A DNA stretch of 36,805 bases from Verrucomicrobiia bacterium (GCA_036509625.1 DATCFH010000206.1:1-36805); one strand, 5' to 3'. Counted from the first letter of the stretch, positions 5,596-33,251 are shown. Numbers and translations are program-made. Notes: generated by a model not told the origin, from the letters alone.

Positions 5596-5679
5596 GCGCA
5601 GACAGCGTAAGCCGGTCGCGCGATCAACGGTAGGAAAAACGGTGGCGAATGTCCGGCGGACAAACGCAAAAGAAAATTT

Positions 5680-6810: not shown

Positions 6811-6839
6811 GGCGACAAATTGGTTAATGGAGTGGCAGC

Positions 6840-8147: not shown

Positions 8148-8165
8148 AAAAATTCCGAACTAAAA

Positions 8166-12270: not shown

Positions 12271-12279
12271 TTATTTATT

Positions 12280-13308: not shown

Positions 13309-13318
13309 AAAATAAAAA

Positions 13319-14194: not shown

Positions 14195-14229
14195 ATTATT
14201 GAAATTTCTAGGGGAAATGTTTGGGCTTG

Positions 14230-15072
14230 TCAATTGCCGACGTCGCTGTGAAAACCACCATACCAAGGCTGATTGGGAAAAGTTTGCGTCGGGGAAACAT
14301 AAACCTGCGTGCGGTCGGGCGCATTCACCATCCACGGCGGAAGCCGTCGGACAGGCATGATGTCCAGCCCCAGACTGGCCGTCAGAAACGACACGAGGTT
14401 CGGCAACGTGCCAGCGAGAATCTGGTCGTTTTGCAATTGGATTGCGGTGGTGATGAACGGCAGCGACGACAACGGATTTGAAAAGCCCGTGACCAACAAC
14501 AGGCGGGAAACAAGTTGCTCCAGATTAAAAACCATTATGGCGCTGAACTCATTTCCATCCGGCGACACAATCACCATCTGCCCGGCCTCCAGCAAAATGT
14601 GCGTATTATTTTTCAACGTCACCTGCACATGCCCTTCGAGATCGAGAATTTTGAAACGGCCGTCCGGCAGCACCGCGCAAACCATCGTCGTTCCCAGCAC
14701 CGCCGCCGCCGTGCCGCGATACCGAACCGTTCCGCCGCCAACGCCAGCCGGCGGATGAAACAACACGCTGCCCTTTTCCAATAGAATATTTCTTCCGCCC
14801 GGCTCAAAAGTAAAAACCGTGTTCGCGCCGACGCGCGTAATGGTTTGATCCGGCGCGGTCATTTCCACGCGCGACGCCGGGCCGGTGCGAACCAAATCCG
14901 GCACTTTGAAAACCGTGTTCGTCACGGCGGGCGTCACGGATTTATTGGCGGCGGCGAGCACATCTGCCGTGCGGATAATTTCCGTGAAAGTGCTTTCTGT
15001 CAGCGGGGTCACTGCCAGCGCCGATACGCGGGTGCAAACGGCCAAGCCGGCCAGAAGAGAAAAAGTTTTCAT
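14230..15072 (-). CDS. Secreted FecR-domain protein (paralog 1)
   Basis: Signal peptide MKTFSLLAGLAVCTRVSALA. The FecR-like core is LVRTGPASRVEMTAPDQTITRVGANTVF...LEKGSVLFH...GTAAAVLGTT...ILLEAGQMVIV. Confidence 0.8.
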   Translation of the reverse strand: MKTFSLLAGLAVCTRVSALAVTPLTESTFTEIIRTADVLAAANKSVTPAVTNTVFKVPDLVRTGPASRVEMTAPDQTITRVGANTVFTFEPGGRNILLEKGSVLFHPPAGVGGGTVRYRGTAAAVLGTTMVCAVLPDGRFKILDLEGHVQVTLKNNTHILLEAGQMVIVSPDGNEFSAIMVFNLEQLVSRLLLVTGFSNPLSSLPFITTAIQLQNDQILAGTLPNLVSFLTASLGLDIMPVRRLPPWMVNAPDRTQVYVSPTQTFPNQPWYGGFHSDVGN

Positions 15073-15138
15073 GTTTGCACCGCCGTGGGATTACAAGACT
15101 AACTTAACACCTGTATTAAATTGTCAAGGTTGCGCCCG

Positions 15139-17384: not shown

Positions 17385-20300
17385 ATGCATAGCCAGTTGC
17401 CTGCCCATCTCATCGCGCACATCAACGTCAAACTCGCCCTCATCGGCTGCTCGCCCGTGCCGCTCGAAGGCGACAAGGAATTCGTCGAGATCGCCGCCGC
17501 GATGGCCGCGCAATCGCGCGAAAAAGACCGGCTGCTCGGCCAGCATCTTTGTCCCGCCGACGCGCGCATCCAGACTTTTCTCTACGATTATTTGCAGGAC
17601 ATTCCCGCGCCGAAATTGCCCGCGCGCACGTTCACGCTCGACCGCGCGGGTCTCGCGCGGGTGCTTTCGCTGCCGGTTGACCGCAATGATTTTTCATCCG
17701 ACATCATCAATTCCTACCGCGTCAAACAAGGCGTTTTACACAATCCGAAAAGCGACCGCCGCACGACCGCCGGAATTTTTCACGTCTGCGAAGGCGGTTT
17801 GCCGATTCCCGACGACAAGCTCGGCGTGCCGAAAGCTACGTTCGCAAAAATCGTCCAGCACGCGCTCACGCCGCCACGCGAACTGCTGAAATTGCCGTTC
17901 ACTTCCACGCAGCCGCAGCCGGCGGAATGTTTCGTCACGCTGTTGATCCGCCCGCTCGTGTGTCCCGAAGTTCCCGGCTTCACCAAAAAGAAAACGATGG
18001 AAGTCCGCTTCTTCGTGCCGGGCAATCTCGTGAGCAATTTGGATTTCGTCGAAGCCATTTTTGAAAACGGCGGCGACCCGTTGCTGCCGGAAAATGACGC
18101 CGCACTCGACACGGAACATTGGAGCGGCCACACCGGCTGCATCATTCTTGCGCCGCATTTGACGAAGCTCACGAAAAAATCCGTCGGTTTGCCGGATTGG
18201 GATTCCGCCACGGAACGCCAGCGGCGCGACGGGATGTGCTGGAAAAAAGAAGACGAACTTTACAACGGCGGCAACGCTTTCAAGCTGACCTGCCGTGACG
18301 AAACGGGCGTCATTGTTACGATTATCGCCGACAATTATTTCGGCTATTGCAAAAAAGAAGTGAAGACGCAGTTGAGTTACGCCGCCAATTTGTTCGGTCT
18401 CGCCGAAGAAGAACACGCGGGCGGCGCGCTCGTTTTTCAGAGCTACGATCTCGGCGAGGAATTCAGCGGCGATGTCCACGTCCGTCGGCTCGGCCATCGT
18501 TTTGAGGAAGTGGCCGCCCTATTCGCCGGCGCGCTAGAGGTGAAGCCGGAAGGCTACGCGGTGGACAAAAAATTTCCGGAGATTCTCTACATTCCGCACG
18601 ACGCGCATTTTGATTTGAAGTCGCAAAAAGTTTCGTGGACGAATGCGACGGGCGATCACGCCATCAAACTTTCGCCGGAAAAAACTTACGTCCGCCCGTC
18701 CGGCTACAAGGTCAAAATGGAAAAACCGCCGGGCGCGGGACGTCAATGGCGGCTCGTCGGCACGGTCGCCGAAGGAACTTTCTGCCACAAGCCCTGCACG
18801 GTTTCCGGCGGCGGCAAATCGGAAATTTCAAAACCGATCACGGACGCAATTTTGACCGGCCCGGTTTTTGTTTCGGATTTGAAAAACGATTTTGACCGCG
18901 TCGAAGAATTGATTGACCGCGATTACTCAAATCGTTTTGCCGACCAGGCGCACACCGACGCGCGCACCGTGCTTTCGCCCGAACGCTCGCTTGGCTCCGT
19001 CATCAAACTGCTCACGCCGGACGAACACGATTACACGCCGAATTACAATACCTGGCTCGCGTCGTTGCCGCAGCACGTCAAGGAACTCGCCTTCGTCGTG
19101 AAGCGCTATTACAAGCCGGAATGGGGCGCGGACTGGCGCGCGCATTTCAGCGTGGACATCATCAACGGCATACCCGGCAACGAACTCAAGTGCGACAACC
19201 GCAAGCTCGTCACGACTTATTTGCGCGTCGGTTTCGACGGCGACGGCGCGTGGCGCACGTTTGGTTTGCGCAAGGATTTTTATCCCGCCGTCAAAGTGCA
19301 GATGGAAGACGATATCACCGCGTCCACCGTTGTGCCACCGGGTTTGCTGGAAGATTTGCCCGCCAACATTGATGAAAACTGCTCGCTTAAGTTTGCCCAG
19401 AACTGTGAACAGCGTTTATTCCAGCGCCCCGACGACGCGATTCATCGCGGCTACGACAAGCAGGCGGAACTGGATTTCGTGCAGCCGGAAAATTTCTTTT
19501 CCAATTACGAACCGCTCACGCCGAAAAATGCGCGCGACATGGTGGAGGACGCGCTGGGCTTCCACGAGTTCACCGAGCCGATGCAAAGGTTCGTGGGCGA
19601 AGTCGCGGCGACGGGCGCGCCGGATTATTTTGTCTGCACCGCGAATCCGCGCATCGTGGACGGCAAGCCGACGAAAAATCCACGCTACTTGCAAAAGCGT
19701 CCCGACCTCGTGCGCGCGAGCGAAACGTATCTGGCGGAAATTTCCGCGCGCCTGCGCCGCCGCGTGCCGCCGGAAAAACCGTTATACACACCGGTCACCG
19801 CCGTGTTGCCGGGACGCCGCAACAATCCGCCGGAAACCGGCATCCGCGCGCTGGCGTGCTACAACCCGATTCATTTCATGGAATTGCCGGAATTGTTCAT
19901 GGAAGTGATTTGCAGCATGACCGGCAAATCGCCTTCGACCACCGGCGCGGGTTCGGAAGGCGCGCTGACGAAAGGGCCGTTCAACGCGCTGCCGCCGATC
20001 ATTGACCTGAACAACGCGCTCGTGTCATTTATTCTTACGGGACAAAACGCGTTTGTGACCGCCGCCGGTTACGTCGGGCCAAATCTGCGTGTGGATCACG
20101 ATGTCAGTTTGATTGTGCCGGAAATCTGGTGTCGCCTGACCGCCGAGGAACGCAATCCGAAATTTCTCATCGCGAACCATTTTCTCGACAAGTGCGCGGA
20201 CTTTGAGCACGACGGTAAAAAAGTTTTGGCGAGCCGGCTCGGCTGGCGCATCAACGCGCGCTTCGTCCACAATTTTTTTGGCCGTATGTTCAACCATCCG

Positions 20301-20801
20301 CAGGCCGTGTTCACCGAGGCGATGCTCAAGCCGGAATTACAGGGCAAAGACATTTTTGCGGATGGCATGGACAACATCGTGGCCACGCAAAAACGCGTCG
20401 CAAAAATGTATTTCGCCGACGGCAGCATCGCGCAGGCGTGCCCGCCGTTGCAGGCGTTGCTGCACATCATGCTCAACGACGAATGGGACGGGAAACAGCT
20501 CGACCATGCGGAGGTTCGGAAACTTTTTACGCGCGAAAACCTGCTGGCAAGCCCGTGGTATGCGGCGCGTTTGGCGGCGAAACAAAAAGTGGATCGTAAT
20601 CTCTGGAAGCGCCACGTCGAATGCTTGAACCAGTTTTTACGCCGCCCGAATTACACGGACGTTTCGGAAAAGCTCGGCATCGCGGACCGCCTCACGGCCG
20701 CGCGAAAAACTTTGGAAGCGGTCGAGTCTGCGGATTATCCGAAGCAACTGGTGGGAACCATCGGTGCGGAGCCGATTGAAAATTACGCGCGCGCAAGTTA
20801 G
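17385..20801 (+). CDS. Large conserved cytoplasmic protein (1138 aa); possibly PPi-dependent phosphoenolpyruvate carboxykinase (tentative)
   Basis: The uninterrupted 1138-codon ORF is very likely real. No signal peptide or TM helix is apparent. A P-loop-like CTVSGGGKSEISK resembles the kinase-1a loop of PEPCKs, and IIADNYFGYCKKE sits where ATP-PEPCKs have IGDDEHGW. The size matches the roughly 130-kDa PPi-PEPCK family. The functional call rests on memory only. Confidence 0.45.
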   Translation: MHSQLPAHLIAHINVKLALIGCSPVPLEGDKEFVEIAAAMAAQSREKDRLLGQHLCPADARIQTFLYDYLQDIPAPKLPARTFTLDRAGLARVLSLPVDRNDFSSDIINSYRVKQGVLHNPKSDRRTTAGIFHVCEGGLPIPDDKLGVPKATFAKIVQHALTPPRELLKLPFTSTQPQPAECFVTLLIRPLVCPEVPGFTKKKTMEVRFFVPGNLVSNLDFVEAIFENGGDPLLPENDAALDTEHWSGHTGCIILAPHLTKLTKKSVGLPDWDSATERQRRDGMCWKKEDELYNGGNAFKLTCRDETGVIVTIIADNYFGYCKKEVKTQLSYAANLFGLAEEEHAGGALVFQSYDLGEEFSGDVHVRRLGHRFEEVAALFAGALEVKPEGYAVDKKFPEILYIPHDAHFDLKSQKVSWTNATGDHAIKLSPEKTYVRPSGYKVKMEKPPGAGRQWRLVGTVAEGTFCHKPCTVSGGGKSEISKPITDAILTGPVFVSDLKNDFDRVEELIDRDYSNRFADQAHTDARTVLSPERSLGSVIKLLTPDEHDYTPNYNTWLASLPQHVKELAFVVKRYYKPEWGADWRAHFSVDIINGIPGNELKCDNRKLVTTYLRVGFDGDGAWRTFGLRKDFYPAVKVQMEDDITASTVVPPGLLEDLPANIDENCSLKFAQNCEQRLFQRPDDAIHRGYDKQAELDFVQPENFFSNYEPLTPKNARDMVEDALGFHEFTEPMQRFVGEVAATGAPDYFVCTANPRIVDGKPTKNPRYLQKRPDLVRASETYLAEISARLRRRVPPEKPLYTPVTAVLPGRRNNPPETGIRALACYNPIHFMELPELFMEVICSMTGKSPSTTGAGSEGALTKGPFNALPPIIDLNNALVSFILTGQNAFVTAAGYVGPNLRVDHDVSLIVPEIWCRLTAEERNPKFLIANHFLDKCADFEHDGKKVLASRLGWRINARFVHNFFGRMFNHPQAVFTEAMLKPELQGKDIFADGMDNIVATQKRVAKMYFADGSIAQACPPLQALLHIMLNDEWDGKQLDHAEVRKLFTRENLLASPWYAARLAAKQKVDRNLWKRHVECLNQFLRRPNYTDVSEKLGIADRLTAARKTLEAVESADYPKQLVGTIGAEPIENYARAS

Positions 20802-20817: not shown

Positions 20818-21576
20818 CTAATCCGGTTTTTCGCCGTAGTTGATGGCCATCGCGCCGCCGAGCAGGTTGATGACGCGGACATTTTTTAATTTCAACGCGC
20901 GCATTTTTTCCGCCACGGCGAGTTGCGCGGGATAATGTTTGAGCGATTCCAAAATGTAGGCGTAAGCCGAGGCGTCGCCGCAAAACAGCCAGCCCATCAG
21001 CGGCACGGACATTTTTAAGTGCGTAAAATAAAGGCTGCGCCAGAGTGCGTTCGCCGGTTTGCCGAAGTCCAGCACGATGAGCCGCGCGCCAGGTTTGGCG
21101 ACGCGAAACATTTCATCCAAACCCCGTTCCCAGCTCGTCAAATTACGCAAGCCGTAGCCGACGGTGACGATGTCGCAGAAATTTTCCGGAAACGGAAGCT
21201 GCTGCGCGTCGCCCTGAAGGAATTGCGGATTGTGGATTGCGGATTGTGGATTTTTATTCTGATTTCCGGCTTCTGACTTCTGGCTTCTGTTGGCGGCGAC
21301 TTCGAGCATTTGCGCGCTGAAATCAAGGCCGATAGTTTCCGCGCCGCCGCGCGCGAGGGCAAAAGAAATATCGCCCGTGCCGCAACAGAGGTCGAGCGCG
21401 CGGTCGCCATTTTTTATTTGCGCGAGTTTGACGACGCGACGTTTCCAAAGCCGGTGCAGGCCGAAGCTTTGCAGGTCGTTCAGAAAATCGTAGCGGCGGG
21501 CGATGCGGGCGAAGAGGTCGTTGACCTTCGCCGCGCGCTGGTCGCCGGGTGCGTAATAGGCGTTGCTCACCCGCAC
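20818..21576 (-). CDS. ubiE: Demethylmenaquinone / ubiquinone biosynthesis C-methyltransferase UbiE/MenG
   Basis: Family motifs VNDLFARIARRYDFLNDLQSFGLHRLWKR, the SAM motif LDLCCGTGD, TVGYGLRNLTSWERGL, and the C-terminal GGAMAINYGEK. Confidence 0.9.
   Translation of the reverse strand: MRVSNAYYAPGDQRAAKVNDLFARIARRYDFLNDLQSFGLHRLWKRRVVKLAQIKNGDRALDLCCGTGDISFALARGGAETIGLDFSAQMLEVAANRSQKSEAGNQNKNPQSAIHNPQFLQGDAQQLPFPENFCDIVTVGYGLRNLTSWERGLDEMFRVAKPGARLIVLDFGKPANALWRSLYFTHLKMSVPLMGWLFCGDASAYAYILESLKHYPAQLAVAEKMRALKLKNVRVINLLGGAMAINYGEKPD
21225..21289. repeat. Two short heptanucleotide tandem-repeat tracts inside the ubiE coding sequence
   Basis: GCGGATTGTGGATT occurs twice in tandem at 21225-21252, which amounts to four 7-nt units GCGGATT/GTGGATT. 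CTTCTGA CTTCTGG CTTCTG lies at 21270-21289. On the coding strand the region translates in frame as RSQKSEAGNQNKNPQSAIHNPQ. Confidence 0.75.
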
Positions 21577-21684
21577 AGTCTAGCGGTGGCGGCGCGCATG
21601 GCAAAGCCGAGAAATGTCTTTGCGCCGGACAGGAGCTTTGTTAGGTTCGGTGCGAAGTTTCAGCGGATTCTTACGAACAAATTT

Positions 21685-22095
21685 ATGAGCACCGGCGGAC
21701 AGCCTAAAAAAATCTTGGTGGTGGACGACAACGAAATTGTCATCAAGACCATTTCCCTAAAGTTGCAGGGGGCGGGCTACCAAGTATTGACGGCCATGGA
21801 CGGTTCGACCGCCGTGTCCATCGCGCGGAAAGAAACGCCGGATTTGATTCTGTTAGACTTGAGTTTTCCGCCAGACGTGGACGGCGTGCCGTGGGACGGT
21901 TTCCGCATCATGGAATGGTTTCACCGGCTGGACAACGTAAAAAAAATTCCCATCATCGTCATTACCGGCACCGATGATCCCTTGGCGAAACAGCGCGCCA
22001 CCAACACGGGCGCGGTGGCCTATTTTCAAAAGCCACTGGAACATGACTATCTGCTGAAAGTCATCCGGGCGACGCTGGGCGAAAGCGTCAAGTGA
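21685..22095 (+). CDS. Stand-alone response regulator receiver protein (CheY-like)
   Basis: ATG at 21685. The sequence KKILVVDDNEIVIKT...DLILLDLSFP...IPIIVITGT...GAVAYFQKP shows the receiver acidic pocket, the phospho-acceptor Asp, and the conserved Thr and Lys. There is no output domain. The longer ORF from 21310 is antisense to ubiE. Confidence 0.85.
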   Translation: MSTGGQPKKILVVDDNEIVIKTISLKLQGAGYQVLTAMDGSTAVSIARKETPDLILLDLSFPPDVDGVPWDGFRIMEWFHRLDNVKKIPIIVITGTDDPLAKQRATNTGAVAYFQKPLEHDYLLKVIRATLGESVK

Positions 22096-22109
22096 CGGAA
22101 AATTCAGGC

Positions 22110-22137
22110 TTGCCAGTCGCGGCGACTGGCTTATGAT
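22110..22137 (+). promoter_or_regulatory. Putative sigma-70-type promoter for tRNA-Gly, overlapping a possible terminator hairpin of the upstream receiver gene
   Basis: TTGCCA at 22110-22115, a 16-nt spacer, then TATGAT at 22132-22137, which is 16 nt before the mature tRNA 5' end. The spacer holds an 8-bp stem with a 3-nt loop (GCCAGTCG-CGG-CGACTGGC, 22112-22130). That hairpin could instead terminate the receiver gene. Confidence 0.35.
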
Positions 22138-22153
22138 ACACAGACCTTTGGAT

Positions 22154-22229
22154 GCGAGCGTAGCTCAGTTGGTAGAGCATCACGTTGCCAACGTGAACGT
22201 CGAGGGTTCAAGTCCCTTCGCTCGCTCCA
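22154..22229 (+). tRNA. tRNA-Gly (anticodon GCC), with encoded CCA
   Basis: I folded the cloverleaf by hand. Acceptor stem GCGAGCG/CGCTCGC, D arm GCTC-AGTTGGTA-GAGC, anticodon arm TCACG-TTGCCAA-CGTGA, variable loop ACGTC, T arm GAGGG-TTCAAGT-CCCTT, discriminator T, then CCA. Total length is 76 nt. Confidence 0.95.
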
Positions 22230-23225: not shown

Positions 23226-23504
23226 TTAATTCATCAACGCCCGCCGTCCGTGACAGTTGCGCCCGTCGAGCAAAAACAAATCGTCGAGTGGAGCGGCTTT
23301 ACGGGTCGCACCGAGCCGGTGGAGTCGGTGGAAATTCGCCCGCGCGTTTCCGGTTACATTCAGGAAGTGCGTTTTCAATCCGGTCAGTTGGTGAAGAAAG
23401 GCGACGTGCTTTCCGTCATTGATCCGCGCTGGCATCAGGCAGTGTTCGATCAGCGCCAGGCTGAATATGGCCACGCCAAAAGCGAGAACGATCGCACCGC
23501 TTAA
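23226..23504 (+). pseudogene. Remnant of an RND/MFP efflux periplasmic adaptor gene, truncated at both ends
   Basis: The fragment translates as [75 protein letters not shown]. This matches the N-terminal lipoyl/hairpin-start region of AcrA/MexA-type adaptors. An in-frame stop at 23223-23225 removes the signal/lipobox region. The frame ends after about 90 codons, overlapping the stop of the SecA-like gene. Confidence 0.6.
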
Positions 23505-25489
23505 ATAGTGTCACCACCCGCGAACGACAGCGCCTCGTCCAGCCGCAAATCGGAACGCACCACGTCTTTGCGTTGCTTGAATGCCAGTGCCTGCGCCTTG
23601 CGCTGGGCAAAGTTAAAAGCCCACTTCGCAATTTTTTCTTTGCCCGGCAAATTACTTTTGACCACGACTTTTTGAACTGGTTTCGGCAGGTATTTGCAAA
23701 TCAACTCGTCCTCAAAACTCACGAATGCCTGCGCGCTGCCGGGATCGCCTTGCCGACCGGCGCGACCAAATAATTGCCGATCCACACGACCAGATTCGTG
23801 CAACTCCGTCGCGATGACGTGCAAGCCGCCCAACGCGACCATGTCTTGACCCAGCTTGATGTCCGTGCCGCGACCGGCCATGTTCGTCGCGATAATAATT
23901 CGTCCTTTTTCGCCGGCGAGTGAAATAAGTTCCGCCTCTTCCTTCAATCGCGTCGCGTTCAAAATTTTTGCTTCCAGCCCGCGCTCGCTCAGCCATTGCC
24001 ACAACCGTTCGCTCGCCAAAACGCTGCGCGTGCCGACGAGCAGCGGTCTTCCCGTCGCGTGCATTTTTTCAATCTCGGCAATGATTGCGCGCCATTTACC
24101 TTTTTCGTCCGCAAAAAATTGATCCGGCAATTGCTTGCGGACGCACGGCTTGTTCGGCGGAATCGCCACCGTCGGCAAACCATAAACCTGCCACAATTCG
24201 CCCGCCGCTTCGCGCGCCGTGCCGGTCATGCCGGACAACTTGTGAAAGCATTTGAAAAATCTTTGGAAACTTAAACGCGCAATTGTTTCCGTCGGATCGG
24301 AAATCGTCAGACCTTCTTTCGCCTCGACGGCCTGGTGCATGCCCGCGCGCCACGAACGTTGCGGCATCGGGCGTCCGGTAAATTCATCCACGATGACAAT
24401 CTTGTCGCCTTCGATGATGTATTGCTGGTTGCGATGAAAAAATTCGCGCGCGACCAACGCTTGAATGACCAATTCCAATCGCCGGTCTTGCCCTTGCCAC
24501 AAGCCGGGCAGATGTGCGGCTTGCGCGACCATTTTTTTCAGACCATCTTTCGTCAGCTCGATTTCCTTGTAGCGCGGATTGGTGTGATAATCAATTTCCG
24601 GCTTCAAGACGGAAATCATTTCCTGCGCGAGTTCGGCGGCGTTGCGGAGCGATTCATTTTTGTGGCTGGCGGAAATTATCAGCGGCGTCACCGCTTCATC
24701 AATCAAAATGCTGTCCGCCTCATCCACAATGGCCGTGTGCAAACCGCGCAAAACCATGCCGTCTTGAACTTCCAGTTGCGGCGCAAGCATCCGGCGAATC
24801 AGGCGGCGTGTTGGATTTTGCATTTTTCCCAGATGCAAACGGTCACGCAAAAAGTCCGCGAGCAGTTCTTTGCTCGTGACGTAAGTAATATCGCAATTGT
24901 AATTTTTTACACGTTCGGTTGGATTGCTCGAACCTGTGACAAAACCAACGCGCACGCCGCAAAAATGGTAGAGCGGCTCCAGCCGTTCCGCGTCGCGCTG
25001 AACCAAATAATCATTCACCGTCACGATGTGGCACGGATGTTTGGTCCAACCCGCAAGAACGGCTGCGAGTCCCGCCGTCAAAGTTTTGCCTTCGCCCGTC
25101 GCCATTTCCGCGAGGTGTCCGCGATGCAACGCCAGCACGCCCACGAGCTGAACCGGAAACGGCCGCAAGCCAAGTTTGCGATCCGCCGCTTCGCGAATCG
25201 CCGCGAGCGCGGGCAGCAGAAATTTTTCCGCCACTTTTCCGCCGCGCCGGAAATGTTCGCGAAATTCCAGCAGCCGTTTTTGCAACTGCGCGTCGGAAAG
25301 TTCAACCCATTCGCGTTCCTGTAAAACGATTTTATCCGCGTCTTGCTTGAGCGATTCGAGGATTTTTTTGCGGCGACGAAACTTGCCGATGCCACTGTTC
25401 ACGAGCGCATCAAGGCCGGCGAGCGGGCGCGGTGGCACGCGATAATCGCTGCGCCGGTAGTCTTGCGTGGGAATCGCAATCATGGGCAT
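23501..25489 (-). CDS. SecA-family ATPase paralog, C-terminally truncated (662 aa)
   Basis: SecA motor motifs are present: [38 protein letters not shown], a PPXD-like segment [28 protein letters not shown], then [26 protein letters not shown] and [31 protein letters not shown]. The protein ends about 90 aa after the last motor motif. Confidence 0.85.
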
Positions 25490-27640
25490 TCAAATCTGAT
25501 AGCGCTTCTGGAGCAGTTGCCAGAGGCTGCGCGTCCAGCGCGGCAACAGCGGCTGCGGCTCCAGTTTGAAACTGATTTTTCCCGAACGACCGTCGAGCAG
25601 CGCGACGCCAGCCTGCGAATTCAAATCACCCAGCACTTCAAAAAACGGTTCGGCGGATTTGTTGCCCTGCGAATTTTCGTCCAGTGCCACCGGCACTTCG
25701 CCGCCCGCGCTCCAGCCGAGTGCCGCCGACGGCAAAATGTGTTGTCCGCCGGGAATCACGCGCCAATGCGCGACGGGCATTTTTTCTCCAGCCGTGCCGT
25801 AAAGCCGCACGTTCGCGCCGTAAATTTTTTTGGCGAACAGCGCGTTCACATCTTCTTCTCGCACCGTCGCGGCAAATTCAAATGCAGCGGGATTCGCGAG
25901 CAAACCCAAATCCGAACCGCGCGGCAGCCAGCGGCCAACGTAATCTTCAATGCCGGGCGCGACCCAAACGCCATCGTGCCGCGCGCGGACGGTCAAATTT
26001 TTCGAATCTTGCGTGAGTTTTTTTAACTCGTCGCTGACGGAATCGCGCAAGCTGGTCAGCGGCGTGATGTCGGCGGAATCTTTGTCCATCGCCTGCAACA
26101 AACGCGCATTTACTTCACCCAAATGCGCGCGCGTATCGGCCAATTCCAAAGTCAGCTCGGAATTTTTCAATTGCAGCAACGGCTGGCCTTGCTTCACCTG
26201 ACTGCCCGATGCGACCAGCAATTCCACAACTTCGCCCGCCGTTTCGCTGGCGACTTGCGTGCGTTGCGTGGCGATAACAATGCCCGGCGCGCGGAACGAA
26301 TACGGAAACGGCACCACGGCGAGCAGCACAATCAAAACCGCCGCGATGCCCGCCGTCACCGCAATGGCGCGTGGACGCACGCGGTCGAGGCGCGGATTGG
26401 AAGAAAGATATTTTACAAAACGAATGACCGGCGCGATTGCCCATGAAATCAAACACGCGGCGGCCATCACGATGCCGATGATTAAAAACCGGTCGGCGAC
26501 GAAAAGCAAAACGCCGCTGAAAACGATGACACGATAAATTCCACTTGTGATGCCAAAAACCGTTAGCCAAGTCGCTTCGCGGCGCGTAGCGGCCTGGGTT
26601 TCGGAATTTTTTACGCCGAACAAATGACGTTCACAGAGATGCCGCAGTTGCGTCGTGGCGCGCTGGTTGAGATTTGGAATTTCCAGCAGGTCGGACAAAA
26701 TATAATAGCCGTCGAAGCGCAGCAGCGGATTGAGATTGAAAATCAACGTCGAGACCGACGCGACGAACATGATGTTGTAGGCGATGCTGTGGACGACGCC
26801 CGGCGCGGTTTTCGACCAGACGAACGCGGCGATGGCGGCAAAAAATAATTCCACAATCATGCCCGCCGCGCCGACGAGCACGCGTTTCCAGCGTTCGCGA
26901 AAACTCCAACTTGAGGTCGCGTCCACATACGGCATCGGCGTAAAAACCATGAGCATCACGCCCATGACGTGAACTTCGCCGCCGAAACGCCGGCAAAAAT
27001 AGGCGTGACCGAATTCGTGCAGCGCCTTGATGCCAATCGTGCTGAGGTAGAGCAGGAATAAATTGTTCGTCGCGAGAATGCCTTCGCCTTGCACACGCAA
27101 GTCGCTGAAATTATCCACGGCAATTTTCAATCCGAAGCCGACGACGAATAGCCACAACAACGCGCCGAACGGACTGATTAGTTTTTTGACGACCGGCATT
27201 GTGCGAACGAGAAAACGATCAGGGTCGAGCAACGGAAATCGCATGAACATGATGTTCAGGAAACGAAAACCGATTTCGCGCTGCTTGCGTTTTTTGTAGC
27301 GCTCAAAAAGCTGCGCGCTATCAGCGGCCAAATCGTATTGCAGCAGATTGGAAAAATAGAGCTGCGACAAAAGTTGGATGACGGCTTCCTGACTCGGCGC
27401 GATGTCGGGAAAACGATTCAAACATTGCTGCCAAACTTCTTCGACAGTGCAATCGGGACGCAAACGCGAGACAAATTCGTAAGCCGCCGGACGCAGGCGG
27501 AAGTATTGGTTGCTGAACGGATTTTCGAGGACGATCCAGCGTTCGCCGCGAAAGTTCTGGCGGCGCACATTGATGGCCGGACGCAGGCAAATCTTTTGAT
27601 TCGCCACGCGATACCAGGATTCGCTAAAGGTTTTATCCAT
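25490..27640 (-). CDS. Fusion protein: PqqD/RRE-like N-domain, M50 site-2 metalloprotease membrane domain and HlyD-type periplasmic adaptor domain
   Basis: The M50 motifs HEFGH and NLNPLLRFDGYY sit in hydrophobic helices. The C-terminal third contains APGIVIATQRTQVASETAGEVVELLVASGSQVKQGQPLLQL plus a coiled coil, as in HlyD/MFP proteins. The N-terminal roughly 100 aa (RLRPAAYEFVSRLRPDCTVEEVWQQCLNRFPDIAPSQEAVIQLLSQLYFSNLL) resemble a PqqD-like peptide-binding domain. Confidence 0.8.
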   Translation of the reverse strand: MDKTFSESWYRVANQKICLRPAINVRRQNFRGERWIVLENPFSNQYFRLRPAAYEFVSRLRPDCTVEEVWQQCLNRFPDIAPSQEAVIQLLSQLYFSNLLQYDLAADSAQLFERYKKRKQREIGFRFLNIMFMRFPLLDPDRFLVRTMPVVKKLISPFGALLWLFVVGFGLKIAVDNFSDLRVQGEGILATNNLFLLYLSTIGIKALHEFGHAYFCRRFGGEVHVMGVMLMVFTPMPYVDATSSWSFRERWKRVLVGAAGMIVELFFAAIAAFVWSKTAPGVVHSIAYNIMFVASVSTLIFNLNPLLRFDGYYILSDLLEIPNLNQRATTQLRHLCERHLFGVKNSETQAATRREATWLTVFGITSGIYRVIVFSGVLLFVADRFLIIGIVMAAACLISWAIAPVIRFVKYLSSNPRLDRVRPRAIAVTAGIAAVLIVLLAVVPFPYSFRAPGIVIATQRTQVASETAGEVVELLVASGSQVKQGQPLLQLKNSELTLELADTRAHLGEVNARLLQAMDKDSADITPLTSLRDSVSDELKKLTQDSKNLTVRARHDGVWVAPGIEDYVGRWLPRGSDLGLLANPAAFEFAATVREEDVNALFAKKIYGANVRLYGTAGEKMPVAHWRVIPGGQHILPSAALGWSAGGEVPVALDENSQGNKSAEPFFEVLGDLNSQAGVALLDGRSGKISFKLEPQPLLPRWTRSLWQLLQKRYQI

Positions 27641-27641
27641 T

Positions 27642-29495
27642 TCACCACCAAAGTTTCATGCGCAGAAAATCCACCGTGCGATGCGTGAGAATCCAGAACA
27701 GCGTGCGTTTCTCCGTGGAAATTTTGCACAGGCCGGTCATGCCGGGACGCCACCATTGCACCGCGCCGTTGTCGGGTTTCAAGCGCACGATGAAAACGTT
27801 GCCGTCTTTTTTGGTGACGGCGGCGGGCTGGACGATTTGCAACGTGACGGGATATTTTATTTTTGGCTGCGTGACGAAAGCGATTTCGCCTTTCGATTTT
27901 CCAAGAATTTCCTGCACGTCGCGCTCGTTGATTTCGGCCTCGACATAAAGCGTGTCAATGCGCGCGACTTTGAAAAGTGCGTCGCCCTGCTTGACCGGCG
28001 ACGCAATGCGTTCACGCAAATCGCCTTCGACAACCACGCCGTCGAAAGTGGCTTTGATGACCGCGTCGTCGAGCCGATAGCGCACGAGATCGAGCCGCGC
28101 CTGTGCCTGCTGCGCCTGCGCGTTGGCAATGCTCATGTCGGCGATGCTGTTGGCGGCGCGCGCTTTTTCCGCCTCGCGCTGATAGCGCACGACATCCGCG
28201 AGCGCGCCCGATTGGTCGAGCAAAAGTTCACTGCGATTCAAACTCACGAGCGGCTGACTTTTGGCAACGTGATCGCCAGCGCGAACAAAAACTTGATCAA
28301 TGTATCCGTCGAACGGCGCGGTCAAATACTCGGCTTCGTCGCTGCGTAAAATGAAATTGCCCTCGACGCGATAATTCACGCGCACGAGAAACAGCGCGAT
28401 CAAAACGACCGCGAGAAAAATTGCGGTGACTTTGCTCCAAGTGTGTTCCGGCCCAAGCCAGCGGGAAAAATACTCGCGCGTGTGCGCCGCCCAGCGCGCG
28501 CCAAACCAGCGGTCGTAATTTTTCAATTCGCTCAAACGGCGCACGACTTGATCGCAGCACAAACGGATTTGTTGAAGTTCAACGGCGGTGAAATTTACGT
28601 CTTGCCGTTCGCACGTCAGCACGCCAACCACTTTGCCGTCGAGGCGCAAAGGAACGGAACAGATGTTGCCGGACTTTTGTTCGGCGGAAAATTTTTCGTG
28701 GTCGCGCGCGACCGTCGTGACGCCTTCTGGCGACGGAAAAAGAATTTCTTCGTCTTGATCCACGCATTCTTCCATCGCAACTTCGAGCGCCTGCGCGGCG
28801 GCCATCTGGCGATTGAACTGCTCGGTGCGGCTCATCGCGCGCAATTTGATGTAGCCGCCTTCGAGCCAGCCGAGGCTTGCGCGATCGCAGCGAAAGCGTG
28901 TGGCGACGCCGTTGCAAAACGCGAGCGCAGCGGAAAGAAATTTGGTCGCGTCGTTCACCGGCACGTTCAAATCCAAAACGGCGGCAAATTTTTCCACGTC
29001 GTTGCGCGATTTTTGCGCGAGCAGATTTTGTTGAAATGCCGTCGGCACATCGGCGACGAGACGCAAACGCGCGAGCGCCTCGTTCGCGGCGGATGCGGTA
29101 AAGTCCTTTAACTGCGCGGCGAAAATGACTTCATCCTCGGCGCGGGAAAGTTTCAAACGCACGGCGATGGTGAAACTGCCGCTGGCCATGTCGGTTTGCT
29201 CAACGAAACTGCCGCTGCTCAAACCGCGTTCGGCGATGGCTTCGAGTTGCGAGGTAAATTGCGTGCGCACACGCGACAAACCGGAGCCGGAATCCCATTC
29301 GCCAATTTTCGCCCAACGTGGCGTTTTGCCAGGATTGCCGAGCAGTAAAACGGCGATGTCCGCCGAAACTAACTTGGCGGCGGCGGCTAAAAAAGTCGGC
29401 CAAAAATTTTTCGGTTCTCCGGAAAACTGGCGCAGCGCGGCGAGTTCGTCCAGCGCGCGGGAAAATTCAGCGTTATTGCCGCCATTGGTTTCCAT
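27642..29495 (-). CDS. Cytoplasmic tandem GAF-like domains, one TM helix and a HlyD-family periplasmic adaptor domain
   Basis: GAF-like endings appear in ICSVPLRLDGKVVGVLTCERQDVNFTAVELQQIRLCCDQVV and in an earlier weaker copy. The TM helix is VTAIFLAVVLIALFLV. The HlyD signature is APFDGYIDQVFVRAGDHVAKSQPLVSL, followed by a coiled coil, IKATFDGVVVEGD and a beta-barrel end. Confidence 0.7.
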   Translation of the reverse strand: METNGGNNAEFSRALDELAALRQFSGEPKNFWPTFLAAAAKLVSADIAVLLLGNPGKTPRWAKIGEWDSGSGLSRVRTQFTSQLEAIAERGLSSGSFVEQTDMASGSFTIAVRLKLSRAEDEVIFAAQLKDFTASAANEALARLRLVADVPTAFQQNLLAQKSRNDVEKFAAVLDLNVPVNDATKFLSAALAFCNGVATRFRCDRASLGWLEGGYIKLRAMSRTEQFNRQMAAAQALEVAMEECVDQDEEILFPSPEGVTTVARDHEKFSAEQKSGNICSVPLRLDGKVVGVLTCERQDVNFTAVELQQIRLCCDQVVRRLSELKNYDRWFGARWAAHTREYFSRWLGPEHTWSKVTAIFLAVVLIALFLVRVNYRVEGNFILRSDEAEYLTAPFDGYIDQVFVRAGDHVAKSQPLVSLNRSELLLDQSGALADVVRYQREAEKARAANSIADMSIANAQAQQAQARLDLVRYRLDDAVIKATFDGVVVEGDLRERIASPVKQGDALFKVARIDTLYVEAEINERDVQEILGKSKGEIAFVTQPKIKYPVTLQIVQPAAVTKKDGNVFIVRLKPDNGAVQWWRPGMTGLCKISTEKRTLFWILTHRTVDFLRMKLWW

Positions 29496-29500
29496 AAAAA

Positions 29501-30226
29501 TTATTCCGTGGTGAGTTGCGCGGAAAGGCCGGGACGAATCTGGTCGGCGGCGTTGTCAAAAATGGCCTTCACTTTCGCGAGGCCGCTCGCGGCGTCCACG
29601 GTCGGCGAGATAAAACAGATTTTTCCGGGAATGATTACGCCGCCATCCACATGGATTTGCACCGCCTCGTCGAGTTGCAAATTGGAAGCGGCTTTGCCTT
29701 CGATGTGGCCGGTGAAATAGCAGCGCGAGGTGTCCACGAGGCGAACAAGCGGTTGATACGGCGCGACGGCGGCGCCGGGTTTGAGCAAGATTTCCGTGAT
29801 GCGCCCGGCAAACGGCGCGATGAGCTGGCGGTTGGCGAGTTGCTGGGCGGCGATACTGTAATCGGCGGCGGCGACATTGTATTCAGCCTCGGCTTTCTGC
29901 ATTTCTTCCTGACTTACGGATTTGGTGGTTTCGATAAGCTGGCGCGTGGAATCAAAAACCATTTTGTTTTGTTCCATCACGGATTTACGGCGCGCGACCT
30001 CGAATGTCTCCAGTTTATTGTCCAACTCCAAAATGGCGTCGCCTTTTTTAACGGCGTCGCCTTCCTTAAAATACTGGTCGCTGATGATGCCGGCGTCGGC
30101 GAGGCCGAGCGTCACGTCCATGAACGGCTCGGTAATGCCGCTGATGGTCACGGGAGCGGCGGCGCGCGCGATGGCAGAAAAATGAATGGCCGCCGCCAGC
30201 ATTAAAATTGGAATGAACTTAAACAT
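29501..30226 (-). CDS. Small secreted periplasmic adaptor (membrane-fusion-protein family, lipoyl plus short hairpin)
   Basis: Signal peptide MFKFIPILMLAAAIHFSAIARAAA. The sequence GIISDQYFKEGDAVKKGDAILELD is followed by a short coiled coil, LIAPFAGRITEILLKPGAAV, and the C-terminal LAKVKAIFDN...IRPGLSAQL. Confidence 0.7.
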   Translation of the reverse strand: MFKFIPILMLAAAIHFSAIARAAAPVTISGITEPFMDVTLGLADAGIISDQYFKEGDAVKKGDAILELDNKLETFEVARRKSVMEQNKMVFDSTRQLIETTKSVSQEEMQKAEAEYNVAAADYSIAAQQLANRQLIAPFAGRITEILLKPGAAVAPYQPLVRLVDTSRCYFTGHIEGKAASNLQLDEAVQIHVDGGVIIPGKICFISPTVDAASGLAKVKAIFDNAADQIRPGLSAQLTTE

Positions 30227-30237
30227 GATTTGGTAAA

Positions 30238-31995
30238 TTAATTGGCGCTGGGGCTGCTCAAAGCGGCGGCGCTGACTCCGTGCAACATCGCGGTGGTCTG
30301 GCGTCTCAACTCTTCGCGCGTGATGTCGAGGTTATGATTTTTCAGAATCGAGCCGACGGTGACTTCGACTTGCAGCAACGAGCGTTGGTATTGCGTGAGC
30401 GCGTTGGCGAGTTCCTGCCGCGCGTCGAGCAAATCGGCTTCGACTTCCAAAACCTTGTGACCGTCCACACGTCCGGCTTTGAGCCGTTCGAGTTGTGTCT
30501 TGAGCAATTCCTCGTTGAAGTGGACGACGGTTTGATAGCTCTGGATGCTTTGTTCCCACGCCTCGGCCTTTTCAATGGAAGTATTGAGACCATTGGCGAT
30601 TTCTGTCTGCACACCTTTCAAGCGGATGTAGGCGGCGTCGAGACTGAGCTTGGAGGCTTGATACAAATTGCGTCCCTTGATGTTGCCGCCCAGCGGCACG
30701 CTTAATTCCACGCCAATCAACCACGAAGGATACGTCTGCTGCTGCGCCATGTTCCACGAACTGTCCGTGGTGAGGCCGAGGCCGTTGAAACCGTAGGCGG
30801 TCTTAAAATCCAGATTCGGCAGCAATTGATTTTTCGCCACGCCGAGCCGCACGCGCTCTTCATCCAATTTTTTTTGCTGAATCAAATAATCGGGATTCAA
30901 GTCAAACGCTTCCTGATAATTGTCCGCGTAGGAAATGGCCGGACTGGTTTCGCGCGGCGTGTCGGTCACGCGAAAAACCGGCTCGCTCGGGCCAGCCAGA
31001 TGCTGGGGAATACTGGTGTCCAAACGCACCTGCTGGTTGCCAAGCGGATCGTAATAATGCCGGAGCGGCGTCGGATTGCCGAGCAACACCCGCAGCGCGC
31101 CCTGCGCATCATAATAACTTTGCAACGCGTCATTCCGTTTGGTGTAACGTAGCGCCAACGCCGATTGCGCCTCCAACACATCAAGCTCCGCGCCCTGGCC
31201 CGCCTTCAATTTTTCGCGGCTGTCGTCCAAAACATTTTGCGCCACCGCCACAGACTGATCGAAGAAATGCACCTGCTCCTGCGAAAAATAAAGATTCCAA
31301 TACGCACTCTCCGCGCGAAACACCGTCACCATCAACTGCTGGCGGTATTCCTGAAAAGCGATGTCCGATTCCAGCGCGGACAGCCGGAGATTGGCCAGCG
31401 TTGGCGTCAGCCAGCCATTTTTCAAAATCGGCTGGGTGAACGTCACGCCCACAAAAGTCTGATACTGCTTGCTCCAATACCCATTCGTTGAAGTTAAAAA
31501 ACTGGCATTCGGATTCACGTTGTTAGCCAGATCGCTCAATGTGTAGCCCAGCCGGATTTTGCCGCCGGTGGGAATCAAATCCTCCACCCCAAAATCATAA
31601 ATATTATTTCGTTCGCTGAAATAACCCTGGCCATTCTGTTGCGCCTGTTGCTGGACATTGTTGGTGCGCTGGTTAGATTCGCGCGTGTAGGCCGCCTGAA
31701 ATTCCGGCTCGAAAATGCCCGCCTCGGCCTTATTTTTGTGCCGCGCGACTTCCGTCTCCAACATTTGCGCCTGCACCGATTCATTGTGCTGCATCACTTG
31801 CGCCAGATAATCGTTCAGCTTGATTCCAATGACCGGAACGTCATTCGTCGCCGCGCTGGATTTTGGCACAAACGCCAGTCCGTCCGCGCCCACGGCCAGA
31901 AATACTAAAACCCTTGCTGACAAGGAGAATAACCATTGCGTCCGCCGCTGCATAAGCTCTGCAAAAAACATTGGACGAAAGCGTAGCAGGGTCAA
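30238..31995 (-). CDS. TolC-family outer-membrane efflux/secretion duct protein
   Basis: The protein shows the two-repeat OEP architecture: LNDYLAQVMQHNESVQAQ...LPNLDFKTAYGF...KLSLDAAYIRLKGVQTEI...LQVEVTVGS. Its N-terminus is signal-like. The start may instead be an internal Met (MQRRTQWLF, about 31953). Confidence 0.8.
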   Translation of the reverse strand: MTLLRFRPMFFAELMQRRTQWLFSLSARVLVFLAVGADGLAFVPKSSAATNDVPVIGIKLNDYLAQVMQHNESVQAQMLETEVARHKNKAEAGIFEPEFQAAYTRESNQRTNNVQQQAQQNGQGYFSERNNIYDFGVEDLIPTGGKIRLGYTLSDLANNVNPNASFLTSTNGYWSKQYQTFVGVTFTQPILKNGWLTPTLANLRLSALESDIAFQEYRQQLMVTVFRAESAYWNLYFSQEQVHFFDQSVAVAQNVLDDSREKLKAGQGAELDVLEAQSALALRYTKRNDALQSYYDAQGALRVLLGNPTPLRHYYDPLGNQQVRLDTSIPQHLAGPSEPVFRVTDTPRETSPAISYADNYQEAFDLNPDYLIQQKKLDEERVRLGVAKNQLLPNLDFKTAYGFNGLGLTTDSSWNMAQQQTYPSWLIGVELSVPLGGNIKGRNLYQASKLSLDAAYIRLKGVQTEIANGLNTSIEKAEAWEQSIQSYQTVVHFNEELLKTQLERLKAGRVDGHKVLEVEADLLDARQELANALTQYQRSLLQVEVTVGSILKNHNLDITREELRRQTTAMLHGVSAAALSSPSAN

Positions 31996-32048: not shown

Positions 32049-33251
32049 TTACATCGTCAGCGCCGCGTCCCAATCTTTCCACACCGGCTCGTAGCCAAGC
32101 TTGCGAATCAGTTCCGCGACTTCCTGCGGCGAACGTTCGTCCGCAATGTTGAATTGTCCCGTCGCATTCGTCGCGCGGTTTTCCTGCGGCGCCCATTCGC
32201 TCGCACCCGCTGCCAGTTCCACAATTTTCCCGCGCTCGGTATGATGGATTTTTTCCTTGCCCGCGCCGGTGTAACCGCCCGGCTCGGTGTGGCTGCCCGC
32301 GCTCATCATCGTTATCCCCAATGGAATCAAACCATCGCGCAGCTTCGGTGTTTCGCGCGTCGAAAGCACGATGCCGACATCGGGAAACATTATGCGGAAC
32401 GCGCAGATGAGTTGTGCCAGCTCGCGGTCGCTCAAATGCGTGAGCGGCTCGAACTCGCCCGCGCACGGACGCAAGCGCGGCAGCGAAATCGTAATCTGCG
32501 CTTTCCAACAATGACGCAACAAATAATCTGTGTGCGCCGCGAGACTCAATGCTTCCAACCGCCAGTCAGCCAGACCGTAAAGCGGCGCAATGCCAAGCCG
32601 ACGAAAACCGGCGGCGTAGGCGCGCTCCGGCGTTTCGAGCCGCCAATCAAAATTCCGTTTTGGTCCGGCAGTGTGCATCTGCGCGTAAATGTCGCGGTCG
32701 TAAGTTTCCTGATAAACCACAAGTCCATCCGCGCCCGCCGCGACGAGCGGCGCGTAATCGGCAGTTTCCATCGGCCCGACTTCGAGCGAGATGCCCGGCC
32801 AGTCCGCGTGCAGCACGGCGATGCAATCGCGCAGATAATTATTCGAGACAAATTTCGGATGTTCGCCCGCGACGAGCAAAATGTTGCGGAAGCCCTGCGC
32901 CTTTAATTCCTGCGCCTCGCGCAAAACTTCTTCGATGGAAAGCGTGACGCGCAAAATCGGATTGTCGCGCGAGAAACCGCAGTAAGAACAATTATTCACG
33001 CACTCATTGGAAAGATACAGCGGCGCAAAAAGGCGGATGGTTTTGCCGAAGCGCTGCTGCGTCAGCAACTGCGCTTTACGTCCGAGCACTTCGAGATTTT
33101 CCGCCGCGGCGGGGGAAATGAGCGCGGCGAAATCGGCGAGGGAAAATTTATCTTTCGCGGCGGCCTCGCGCGCAGCGGCCGCGCTGGTGGCGAGAGACTT
33201 TTTAACGAGCGCAGCCAGCGGCAGGGAATTAAATTCAGCGACAAAACTCAC
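32049..33251 (-). CDS. thiH: 2-iminoacetate synthase ThiH (radical SAM, thiamine thiazole branch)
   Basis: FAPLYLSNECVNNCSYCGFS carries the radical-SAM CxxxCxxC motif. GFRNILLVAGE, VYQETYD and ISLPRLRP match the ThiH pattern. Length is 400 aa. Confidence 0.85.
   Translation of the reverse strand: MSFVAEFNSLPLAALVKKSLATSAAAAREAAAKDKFSLADFAALISPAAAENLEVLGRKAQLLTQQRFGKTIRLFAPLYLSNECVNNCSYCGFSRDNPILRVTLSIEEVLREAQELKAQGFRNILLVAGEHPKFVSNNYLRDCIAVLHADWPGISLEVGPMETADYAPLVAAGADGLVVYQETYDRDIYAQMHTAGPKRNFDWRLETPERAYAAGFRRLGIAPLYGLADWRLEALSLAAHTDYLLRHCWKAQITISLPRLRPCAGEFEPLTHLSDRELAQLICAFRIMFPDVGIVLSTRETPKLRDGLIPLGITMMSAGSHTEPGGYTGAGKEKIHHTERGKIVELAAGASEWAPQENRATNATGQFNIADERSPQEVAELIRKLGYEPVWKDWDAALTM

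Follow-up and report, generated by a model that had tools for sequence, protein, structure and literature searches.

A previous study described, by computational means, a gene module centred on "secondary SecA_DEAD domain proteins" (Kamneva, Poudel & Ward, PLoS One 2015; PMC4452313). It was reported that these proteins have lost the wing/scaffold of SecA and group in a clade of their own, apart from the canonical SecA that the same genomes encode, and that they are encoded together with Peptidase_M50/HlyD, GAF/HlyD and HlyD/biotin-lipoyl proteins and sometimes an OEP protein, no ATP-binding cassette (ABC) transporter being part of the set. It was further proposed that the SecA_DEAD protein acts as ATPase, with a possible role of the M50 protein in membrane passage, and horizontal transfer of the module was inferred. 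A SapC gene also recurs near it, as cluster 4 of the S2 table of that study. No experimental follow-up of the module was found in the searchable literature. The present analysis concerns a 36,805-nucleotide stretch of DNA from a Verrucomicrobiia bacterium (GCA_036509625.1, DATCFH010000206.1:1-36805; hereafter the window), whose minus strand carries an operon of five genes encoding a TolC-family duct, a small secreted adaptor, a GAF-containing adaptor, a PqqD-like/M50 protease/adaptor fusion and a truncated SecA paralog. This operon is a rediscovery of the published, uncharacterised module, and the idea of the sequence-only reading of the window was preceded by the 2015 proposal. A comparison of related loci suggests that the operon is, on balance, probably a dedicated TolC-dependent, envelope-spanning exporter of giant proteins that carry an N-terminal LEPRxLL motif. 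This link between the module and a cargo is new, being absent from the searchable literature.

The window operon and the module of the 2015 study agree in gene content, in the phyla concerned, which include Verrucomicrobia, in the lack of an ABC transporter and in the idea of an ATPase working with an M50 protein; horizontal transfer, inferred in the earlier work, is seen here as an island linked to a tRNA-Gly gene. However, in the window operon, which is of a Limisphaerales type, the genes for TolC and the small adaptor come first and all five genes form one tight operon. Additionally, the earlier work named no cargo and did not remark on the PqqD-like domain; a candidate cargo and this domain are added here.

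Several better-known systems share parts of this architecture. With classical type I secretion (HlyB-HlyD-TolC, LapBCE and SapDEF), the module has in common the TolC duct, membrane-anchored alpha-hairpin adaptors with a cytoplasmic N-terminal extension, a likely giant, repeat-rich, calcium-binding and adhesin-like cargo, and SapC as a recurrent accessory. In contrast to those systems, it contains no ABC transporter, has a soluble SecA-type DEAD motor and three adaptor paralogs instead of one, bears its candidate signal (LEPRxLL) at the N-terminus rather than at the C-terminus of the cargo, and includes a membrane metalloprotease fused to an adaptor. With canonical SecA and SecA2, the motor shares nucleotide-binding domain 1 (NBD1), NBD2 and, between them, the preprotein cross-linking domain, every helicase/ATPase motif being kept, whereas the wing, the two-helix finger (IRA1), the C-terminal linker and a SecY2 or accessory Sec partner are missing, and its gene is accompanied by those for TolC and adaptors. 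In C39-containing ABC exporters (peptidase-containing ABC transporters) and in the M50 proteases of ribosomally synthesised and post-translationally modified peptides (RiPPs), such as the daptide MpaP-type and YydH/LiaK, a leader-binding or leader-cleaving module is likewise joined to export machinery; here, however, the protease is M50 and not C39, is fused to an adaptor and not to an ABC pump, scores below the curated cut-offs, and has giant genes rather than short precursors as neighbours. Finally, giant proteins of Omnitrophota and Actinobacteria with an embedded SecA_DEAD domain (10.1101/2023.11.21.568195) also combine a wing- and scaffold-less SecA DEAD domain with preprotein-binding domains, and these domains have been proposed to help in the export of the giants. 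In those proteins the SecA_DEAD domain lies inside the giant, no TolC, adaptor or M50 partners being described, whereas in the window it is a separate 662-aa protein within an operon.

Organization of the operon and absence of a canonical pump

ORF calling delimited five minus-strand open reading frames (ORFs) at 23501-31995, separated by spacers of 11, 5, 1 and 0 nt, the start codon of the SecA-like gene directly abutting the stop codon of the M50-fusion gene (Table 1). The order, coordinates and spacing proposed by the sequence-only reading were reproduced, and the family assigned to each of the five products was confirmed by profile searches. All five ORFs are intact, and an identical copy of the operon has been assembled independently. 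Promoter and terminator scans of the operon returned fewer matches than in shuffled sequence and were uninformative.

No ABC, resistance-nodulation-division (RND) or major facilitator superfamily (MFS) transporter was found by profile searches across the 36.8-kb window, in agreement with the initial claim, and the sole trace of such systems is an 84-aa fragment of an RND adaptor. Likewise, Pfam and NCBIfam searches detected neither a C39 nor an ABC domain in any of the five operon proteins.

Table 1. Features of the operon and of its boundary, with position in the window, strand and supporting evidence (TM, transmembrane; AF2, AlphaFold2)
Feature	Coordinates	Strand	Evidence
TolC-family outer-membrane duct	30238..31953	-	Pfam OEP x2, signal peptide
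Small secreted periplasmic adaptor, 241 aa	29501..30226	-	TIGR01730 RND_mfp, HlyD_3, HlyD_D23
GAF-GAF-TM-adaptor (HlyD-type)	27642..29495	-	Pfam GAF, HlyD_D23, TM scan, AF2 and Foldseek
PqqD-like/M50 protease/adaptor fusion	25490..27640	-	Pfam, NCBIfam, AF2, Foldseek
SecA-like DEAD-motor ATPase, 662 aa	23501..25489	-	SecA_DEAD, SecA_PP_bind, P-loop_SecA
MexE-like RND-adaptor N-terminal fragment, 84 aa	23250..23504	+	NCBIfam MexE E 4e-23, profile positions 39-120 of 390
tRNA-Gly(GCC)	22154..22229	+	ARAGORN

Conservation of the module in other genomes

The neighbourhood of the module was surveyed at 80 genomic loci anchored on the M50-adaptor fusion, adjacency being counted wherever the flank was long enough. 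The SecA-like gene, encoding about 660-670 aa, lies immediately downstream of the M50-adaptor gene at 65 of 71 loci, and the GAF-adaptor gene lies immediately upstream of it at 64 of 70; all five genes are found together, in the same order, at 25 of the 80 loci. The linkage of this core trio spans at least eight phyla, with carriers in Verrucomicrobiota, Planctomycetota, Beta- and Gammaproteobacteria, Nitrospirota, Desulfobacterota, Spirochaetota, Fibrobacter and Myxococcota. The closest locus (L002) is 78% identical, and synteny with it is confined to the operon. ABC-like ORFs occur within 6 kb of the module at only two of the 80 loci, and the clustering of neighbouring ORFs yielded no recurrent RND or MFS family, which indicates that a canonical transporter is not a regular part of homologous clusters. 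The co-occurrence of the genes in other genomes and the lack of a regular transporter beside them concern two of the three points at which the sequence-only reading would have been refuted, and on neither was it refuted.

Two further families recur beside the module. At 15 of the 80 loci the module has next to it a gene for a DUF3467 protein (about 100-117 aa; PF11950, E 2e-17; e.g., L075 3441-3794), for which no relative in the PDB was found by sequence, and a SapC-family protein (PF07277, E 3e-76; e.g., L045 5992-6756) is encoded nearby at nine. Neither gene is present in the window. That these proteins serve as chaperones or adaptors would be a guess. The radical-SAM gene upstream of the window operon (32049-33251) was considered as a peptide maturase and rejected: it corresponds to ThiH (442 bits, cut-off 380) and is not conserved with the module.

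At six loci (L017, L035, L052, L053, L055 and L062) the M50-adaptor gene has no adjacent intact SecA-like gene. One of them, L052, has a weak 84-bit SecA-like match in a long frame, and no obvious replacement ATPase was seen at any of the six. By analogy with some of the genomes reported by Kamneva et al., the SecA-like gene of these six may lie elsewhere in the genome.

Proteins encoded by the operon

The SecA-like protein matches SecA_DEAD (E 2e-96), SecA_PP_bind (E 2e-24) and P-loop_SecA in Pfam, and aligns to residues 16-603 of Bacillus subtilis SecA with about 40% identity, after which it ends. It retains NBD1, the preprotein cross-linking domain and NBD2 and stops about 45 aa into the scaffold helix, lacking the SecA_SW wing/scaffold, the two-helix finger and the C-terminal tail, so that the description of a truncated SecA paralog holds. 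Across 56 homologues, the motifs GEGKT, DEAD, AGRGTDI and GRxGRQG show 95-100% conservation, and the truncation is family-wide: the median length is 671 aa, and none of these 56 proteins extends more than 40 aa past the C-terminus of the window protein. Its homologues have a length of about 663 aa and no PF07516 (SecA_SW). Such a wing-less motor is similar to "N68", a deregulated fragment of E. coli SecA. Since the truncation is family-wide and the clade described by Kamneva et al. coexists with canonical SecA (PMC4452313), a full-length secA is likely to be found elsewhere in the source genome. In public annotation, truncated SecA homologues (P0191, P0197, P0206 and P0232) are called "prepilin peptidase" in NCBI metagenome-assembled genomes and "preprotein translocase subunit SecA" by JGI, and both names are misleading for these paralogs.

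The PqqD-like/M50/adaptor fusion belongs to a family of 4,467 clusters at 50% identity (E<=1e-30). It scores 29.1 bits against Peptidase_M50 (Pfam cut-off 27.2), and its HEFGH (residues 208-212) and NLNPLLRFDG (302-311) segments, which conform to the site-2-type HExxH and NxxPxxxxDG motifs, are invariant in 46 homologues. Among curated families, the M50 part comes nearest to NF041824, the daptide intramembrane metalloprotease, whose cut-off it does not reach (E 3e-53), and to YydH/LiaK. A hydrophobicity scan places about 7-8 TM segments between residues 150 and 443. In the AF2 model of the fusion (predicted local distance difference test, pLDDT, 87), the C-terminal part (aa ~445-716) matches the MexA/MacA/AcrA fold in Foldseek (E about 1e-10) and an alpha-hairpin is modelled at aa 494-547. 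The N-terminal domain (aa ~15-100) is modelled as three strands in 17-49 followed by three helices in 51-96, and PF05402 (PqqD) is found in 17 of 27 homologues of the fusion (best E 5.9e-9). From its sequence relatives and modelled fold, this N-terminus appears to be a PqqD-like domain of the RiPP recognition element (RRE) type, with a putative leader-binding role.

The TolC-family duct has two OEP domains (E 9e-42) and can be regarded as divergent, because its score against the TIGR01844 TolC subfamily (E 9e-21) falls below the cut-off. Its longest ORF begins with TTG at 31995, and the gene call on the identical contig begins with ATG at 31953, giving 571 aa; the latter is the likely start, judging from the hydrophobic N-terminus that would follow it as a signal peptide, and the choice leaves the intergenic spacing unchanged. 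The small adaptor, whose gene is present at 52 of the 80 related loci, reaches 140 bits against TIGR01730 RND_mfp (cut-off 94.9) over profile positions 15-243 of 322, also matches HlyD_3 and HlyD_D23, and has a signal peptide, no lipobox cysteine and no membrane-proximal domain. The GAF-adaptor shows one GAF domain in Pfam (E 3e-7), HlyD_D23 (E 1e-14) and HlyD_3, and a single TM helix at aa 356-374, between the cytoplasmic GAF domains and the periplasmic HlyD-type domain. The tandem GAF-GAF arrangement claimed for it, of which Pfam sees only one unit, is supported by its AF2 model, which was computed from database homologues only 69-91% identical and is for that reason of mediocre quality overall (pLDDT 66), though good over residues 8-160, and whose top Foldseek matches are the tandem GAF-A/GAF-B domains of the phosphodiesterases PDE2A/5A/6 (E about 1e-8).

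LEPRxLL giant proteins as candidate cargo

The clustering of flanking ORFs at the 80 loci brought out giant ORFs with the N-terminal motif (L/V)ExLE(P/E/D/Q)Rx(L/M)LSA, which match NCBIfam NF012209 (LEPR-8K, "LEPR-XLL domain-containing protein") above its cut-off (E 4e-8 to 6e-5). With a strict pattern, restricted to the first 120 codons from the frame start of a long ORF, the motif was found at 16 of 84 module loci and at none in reversed-DNA controls. The LEPRxLL giants beside the module measure from 1,000 to over 5,800 aa, and a hydrophobic core of the signal-peptide kind is missing from their N-termini. Among close relatives (SecA-like protein 86-92% or GAF-adaptor 91% identical), each one checked carries the giant gene, with a length of 3,000 to 5,860 aa, directly behind that for the SecA-like protein, and at the loci L202-L205 the LEPR motif is encoded as "...FELEALEPRVLLSAD..." or "...FELESLESRVLLSAD..." about 140 nt past the SecA-like stop.

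As regards the annotation of these giants, gene callers start them hundreds of codons late or split them in nanopore assembly (L203-L205, 12060-12831; L202, 12060-15968), and the in-frame upstream LEPR motif is preceded only by non-ATG start codons, probably TTG. Owing to these late calls and non-ATG starts, LEPRxLL N-termini are likely to be under-annotated in public data.

The association was also examined in the reverse direction, by scanning metagenomes for DNA encoding ExLEPRxLLSAxP, a pattern whose "xP" biases the sample toward the LEPRxLLSAxP subtype. The scan gave 120 loci, in 83 of which the motif heads a long ORF. Where the sequence upstream of the LEPR gene extends for 2.5 kb or more, the module lies there in 6 of 37 cases, and in 4 of 14 where it extends for 5 kb or more. 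The commonest upstream neighbours were SapC (11/83), the small adaptor (9), the SecA-like gene (6) and the M50-adaptor (6), and an ABC-like ORF was found near LEPR genes only once in 75. Repeats of the RTX and cadherin type are typical of TolC-exported adhesins, and the LEPR protein at L047 contains, according to Pfam, Big_9/cadherin repeats and RTX calcium repeats, the latter at aa 1445-1479 of 1553; this is the only complete LEPRxLL neighbour scanned against Pfam, the remaining ones being cut off by locus ends.

A recent preprint described two giants of Chlorobium chlorochromatii, Cag_663 (36,806 aa) and Cag_665 (20,647 aa), which have N-terminal LEPRxLL domains and no known transport signals (10.64898/2026.03.19.712371). 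The genes sapC and tolC flank them, and their expression goes together with that of Cag_1676, a "secA" acquired by horizontal transfer; the proteins were reported to be transferred to a partner bacterium and to accumulate in the periplasm when the partner cell is absent (10.64898/2026.03.19.712371).

Within the window itself, the only LEPR-like regular-expression match (3749, minus strand) was rejected as cargo, being out of frame inside an RNase R-like gene (2273-4753), which agrees with the initial observation that no candidate substrate ORF is visible there. The cargo, first described only as a peptide or protein, can be narrowed: giant LEPRxLL surface proteins are the likelier substrates, and small peptides the less likely.

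Proposed export pathway and its weak points

The observed basis of the exporter model consists of the gene content, the intact active sites, the tight linkage, the absence of a canonical pump and the neighbourhood association with LEPRxLL giants and SapC, seen in both search directions. In the model, the GAF-GAF-TM-adaptor and the PqqD-like/M50/adaptor fusion would form an inner-membrane platform, and the small soluble adaptor would help these two anchored adaptors to build a periplasmic tunnel docking to TolC. The wing-less SecA-type ATPase would do the work that an ABC ATPase does in classical type I secretion, and the cargo would be giant, repeat-rich surface or adhesin-like proteins with no Sec signal peptide and with an N-terminal LEPRxLL(S/A) motif. 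The cytoplasmic PqqD-like domain would first bind this motif, as RiPP recognition elements bind leader peptides; the SecA-like protein would then grip the unfolded chain in its preprotein clamp and feed it, driven by ATP, into the membrane complex; the M50 protease would clip or release the N-terminal tag; the chain would leave through the adaptor/TolC conduit; and the GAF domains would gate the system on a small ligand. These individual steps are held with less confidence than the general exporter model. The type I-like export first suggested for the operon is still the preferred reading: it was refuted neither by the survey of gene co-occurrence nor by that of transporters in homologous clusters, and the model as such is deduced from gene content. 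A more specific version, in which the SecA-like, M50-adaptor, GAF-adaptor and TolC proteins together with SapC constitute a dedicated one-step pathway for LEPRxLL giants, including the proteins of 20,000-37,000 aa of phototrophic consortia, with the PqqD-like domain reading the tag, the SecA-type protein as motor and the M50 protein as processing enzyme, is put forward tentatively, as plausible and somewhat short of probable.

Several observations weigh against the exporter model. M50 proteases are not known to conduct proteins through a membrane, and the fusion is the only polytopic protein present, which leaves the crossing of the inner membrane unexplained; this is the weakest point of the model. 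The elements by which canonical SecA is coupled to its channel, namely the two-helix finger and the scaffold/wing, are missing from the SecA-like protein. In the window protein the PqqD match is weak (E 4e-4, below the cut-off), and PqqD 3g2b tops the list of PDB profiles only with E 0.27. Adjacency is seen in about 20% of module loci and in 16-29% of LEPR loci, the rest depending on genes elsewhere. No cargo gene is present in the window, where the operon might be idle. The RTX repeats near the C-terminus of the L047 protein would fit export with the C-terminus first, which is the direction favoured by the Chlorobium preprint, through SapC/TolC/HlyD and with the M50/SecA-like module unmentioned (10.64898/2026.03.19.712371). 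Additionally, the possible membership of Cag_1676 in the truncated SecA clade is a lead only.

Island boundary and alternative explanations

The absence of a cargo gene from the window is explained by the history of the locus. The MexE-like fragment ends inside the stop codon of the SecA-like gene, and nucleotide homology to the operons of relatives ends at 23505; the fragment looks like a recombination scar and no part of the export machine. In a related locus (L207) the order is UbiE(-), response regulator(+), tRNA-Gly(GCC), a phage-type integrase(-), the five genes and a gene of 4,991 aa. The UbiE/regulator/tRNA-Gly block is also present in the window (20828-22229) and shares 82% nucleotide identity with that of L207 (block region 4249-7282). 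The operon, however, is inverted relative to L207, window positions 31812-23505 aligning to 7683-16000, and no integrase is found in the window. In other relatives (L206, L208 and L209), RadC, ArdC-N and Dam genes lie upstream of the operon. The tRNA-Gly block and integrase of L207, together with these RadC/ArdC-N/Dam genes, indicate that the module rides a tRNA-linked mobile island, and the cargo gene is missing here because a rearrangement at the island, with its break precisely at the stop codon of the SecA-like gene, parted the two.

Such a history raises the alternative that the operon of the source genome is a stranded, non-functional remnant, parted from its cargo by the rearrangement. 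This is unlikely, even though it survives better than the other alternatives: the sharp end of homology, the abutting truncated RND-adaptor gene, the inversion and the missing giant gene are what it would predict, whereas the five intact ORFs with invariant catalytic and ATPase motifs, found again in an independently assembled identical copy, argue against decay, and LEPRxLL genes are non-adjacent at about 80% of the other loci too.

Slightly less likely still is a two-step pathway, in which the SecA-like protein, in the manner of accessory SecA2 systems, hands signal-less giants to the housekeeping SecYEG channel and the adaptors and TolC act from the periplasm outward, like MacAB-TolC with enterotoxin. 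It would make use of the retained preprotein cross-linking domain and ATPase motifs and avoid the missing inner-membrane channel, and it is compatible with the position of the secondary SecA_DEAD clade next to actinobacterial SecA2 (PMC4452313) and with the periplasmic accumulation of the Chlorobium giants in the absence of the partner (10.64898/2026.03.19.712371). However, the protein is missing what docks SecA on SecY (two-helix finger, wing and the greater part of the scaffold), no SecY-like, SecY2-like or Asp-like recurrent neighbour emerged from the clustering around the 80 loci, and a dedicated partner is suggested by the strict translational coupling of the motor gene to that of the M50-adaptor, with a 0-nt spacer here and adjacency at 65 of 71 loci.

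It is also improbable that the operon is a leader-dependent exporter of small ribosomal peptides, such as RiPPs or bacteriocins, in which the PqqD-like domain binds the leader, the M50 protease removes it and the product leaves through the adaptor and TolC. The proximity of the M50 domain to the daptide NF041824 and YydH/LiaK families, the daptide and epipeptide members of which remove leaders, would suit this function, as would the PqqD-like RRE domain and the analogy with C39 exporters. Nevertheless, no recurrent small precursor family or RiPP maturase was found among clustered ORFs of at least 30 aa around the 80 loci, the small protein that does recur, DUF3467, is no obvious precursor, the recurrent large neighbours are LEPRxLL giants, and a short peptide would hardly call for a motor of the SecA type.

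Least probable is a device for regulated intramembrane proteolysis or signalling, in which the GAF sensor and the site-2-type protease would act on a membrane or envelope protein, with TolC and adaptors serving small-molecule efflux: GAF domains are ligand sensors, M50 proteases act classically in signalling cascades and the GAF gene of M. extorquens is expressed with the rest of its operon silent (PMC4452313), but no anti-sigma/sigma partner or transcription factor beyond generic response regulators is conserved with the module at the 80 loci, three adaptor paralogs, TolC and a polypeptide-clamping ATPase would be excessive for this task, and a small-molecule pump is absent.

Other features of the window

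Outside the operon, a plus-strand ORF of 1,138 aa (17385-20801) has no Pfam or NCBIfam match at E<=0.01 and no TM or signal features, and its product looks cytoplasmic. A separate cluster (5680-6942, minus strand; 10606-12270 and 6840-9890, plus strand) encodes multihaem cytochrome-like proteins with c554/c7/MtrC-like motifs, an FAD/NAD/2Fe-2S oxidoreductase and a cNMP-binding 4Fe-4S protein, and may be an extracellular or periplasmic electron-transfer locus of this Verrucomicrobiota-like genome.

Implications

To our knowledge, all TolC-linked export systems characterised so far draw their power from a membrane transporter of the ABC, RND or MFS type. If the exporter model is true, a soluble SecA-type motor combined with a protease-adaptor fusion would represent a new way to energise transport across both membranes, and the module would be a distinct secretion system defined by an N-terminal tag, a SecA-type motor and one-step TolC export. 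At the level of annotation, the names at present given to genes of the module, namely "preprotein translocase SecA", "prepilin peptidase" and "RND efflux adaptor", are incorrect. The cargo link turns an orphan bioinformatic observation of 2015 into a testable pair of substrate and machine, for which Methylobacterium, Ruegeria, Bordetella avium and Achromobacter are culturable hosts, and it may explain how proteins of 5,000 to 37,000 aa are exported without a recognisable signal peptide.

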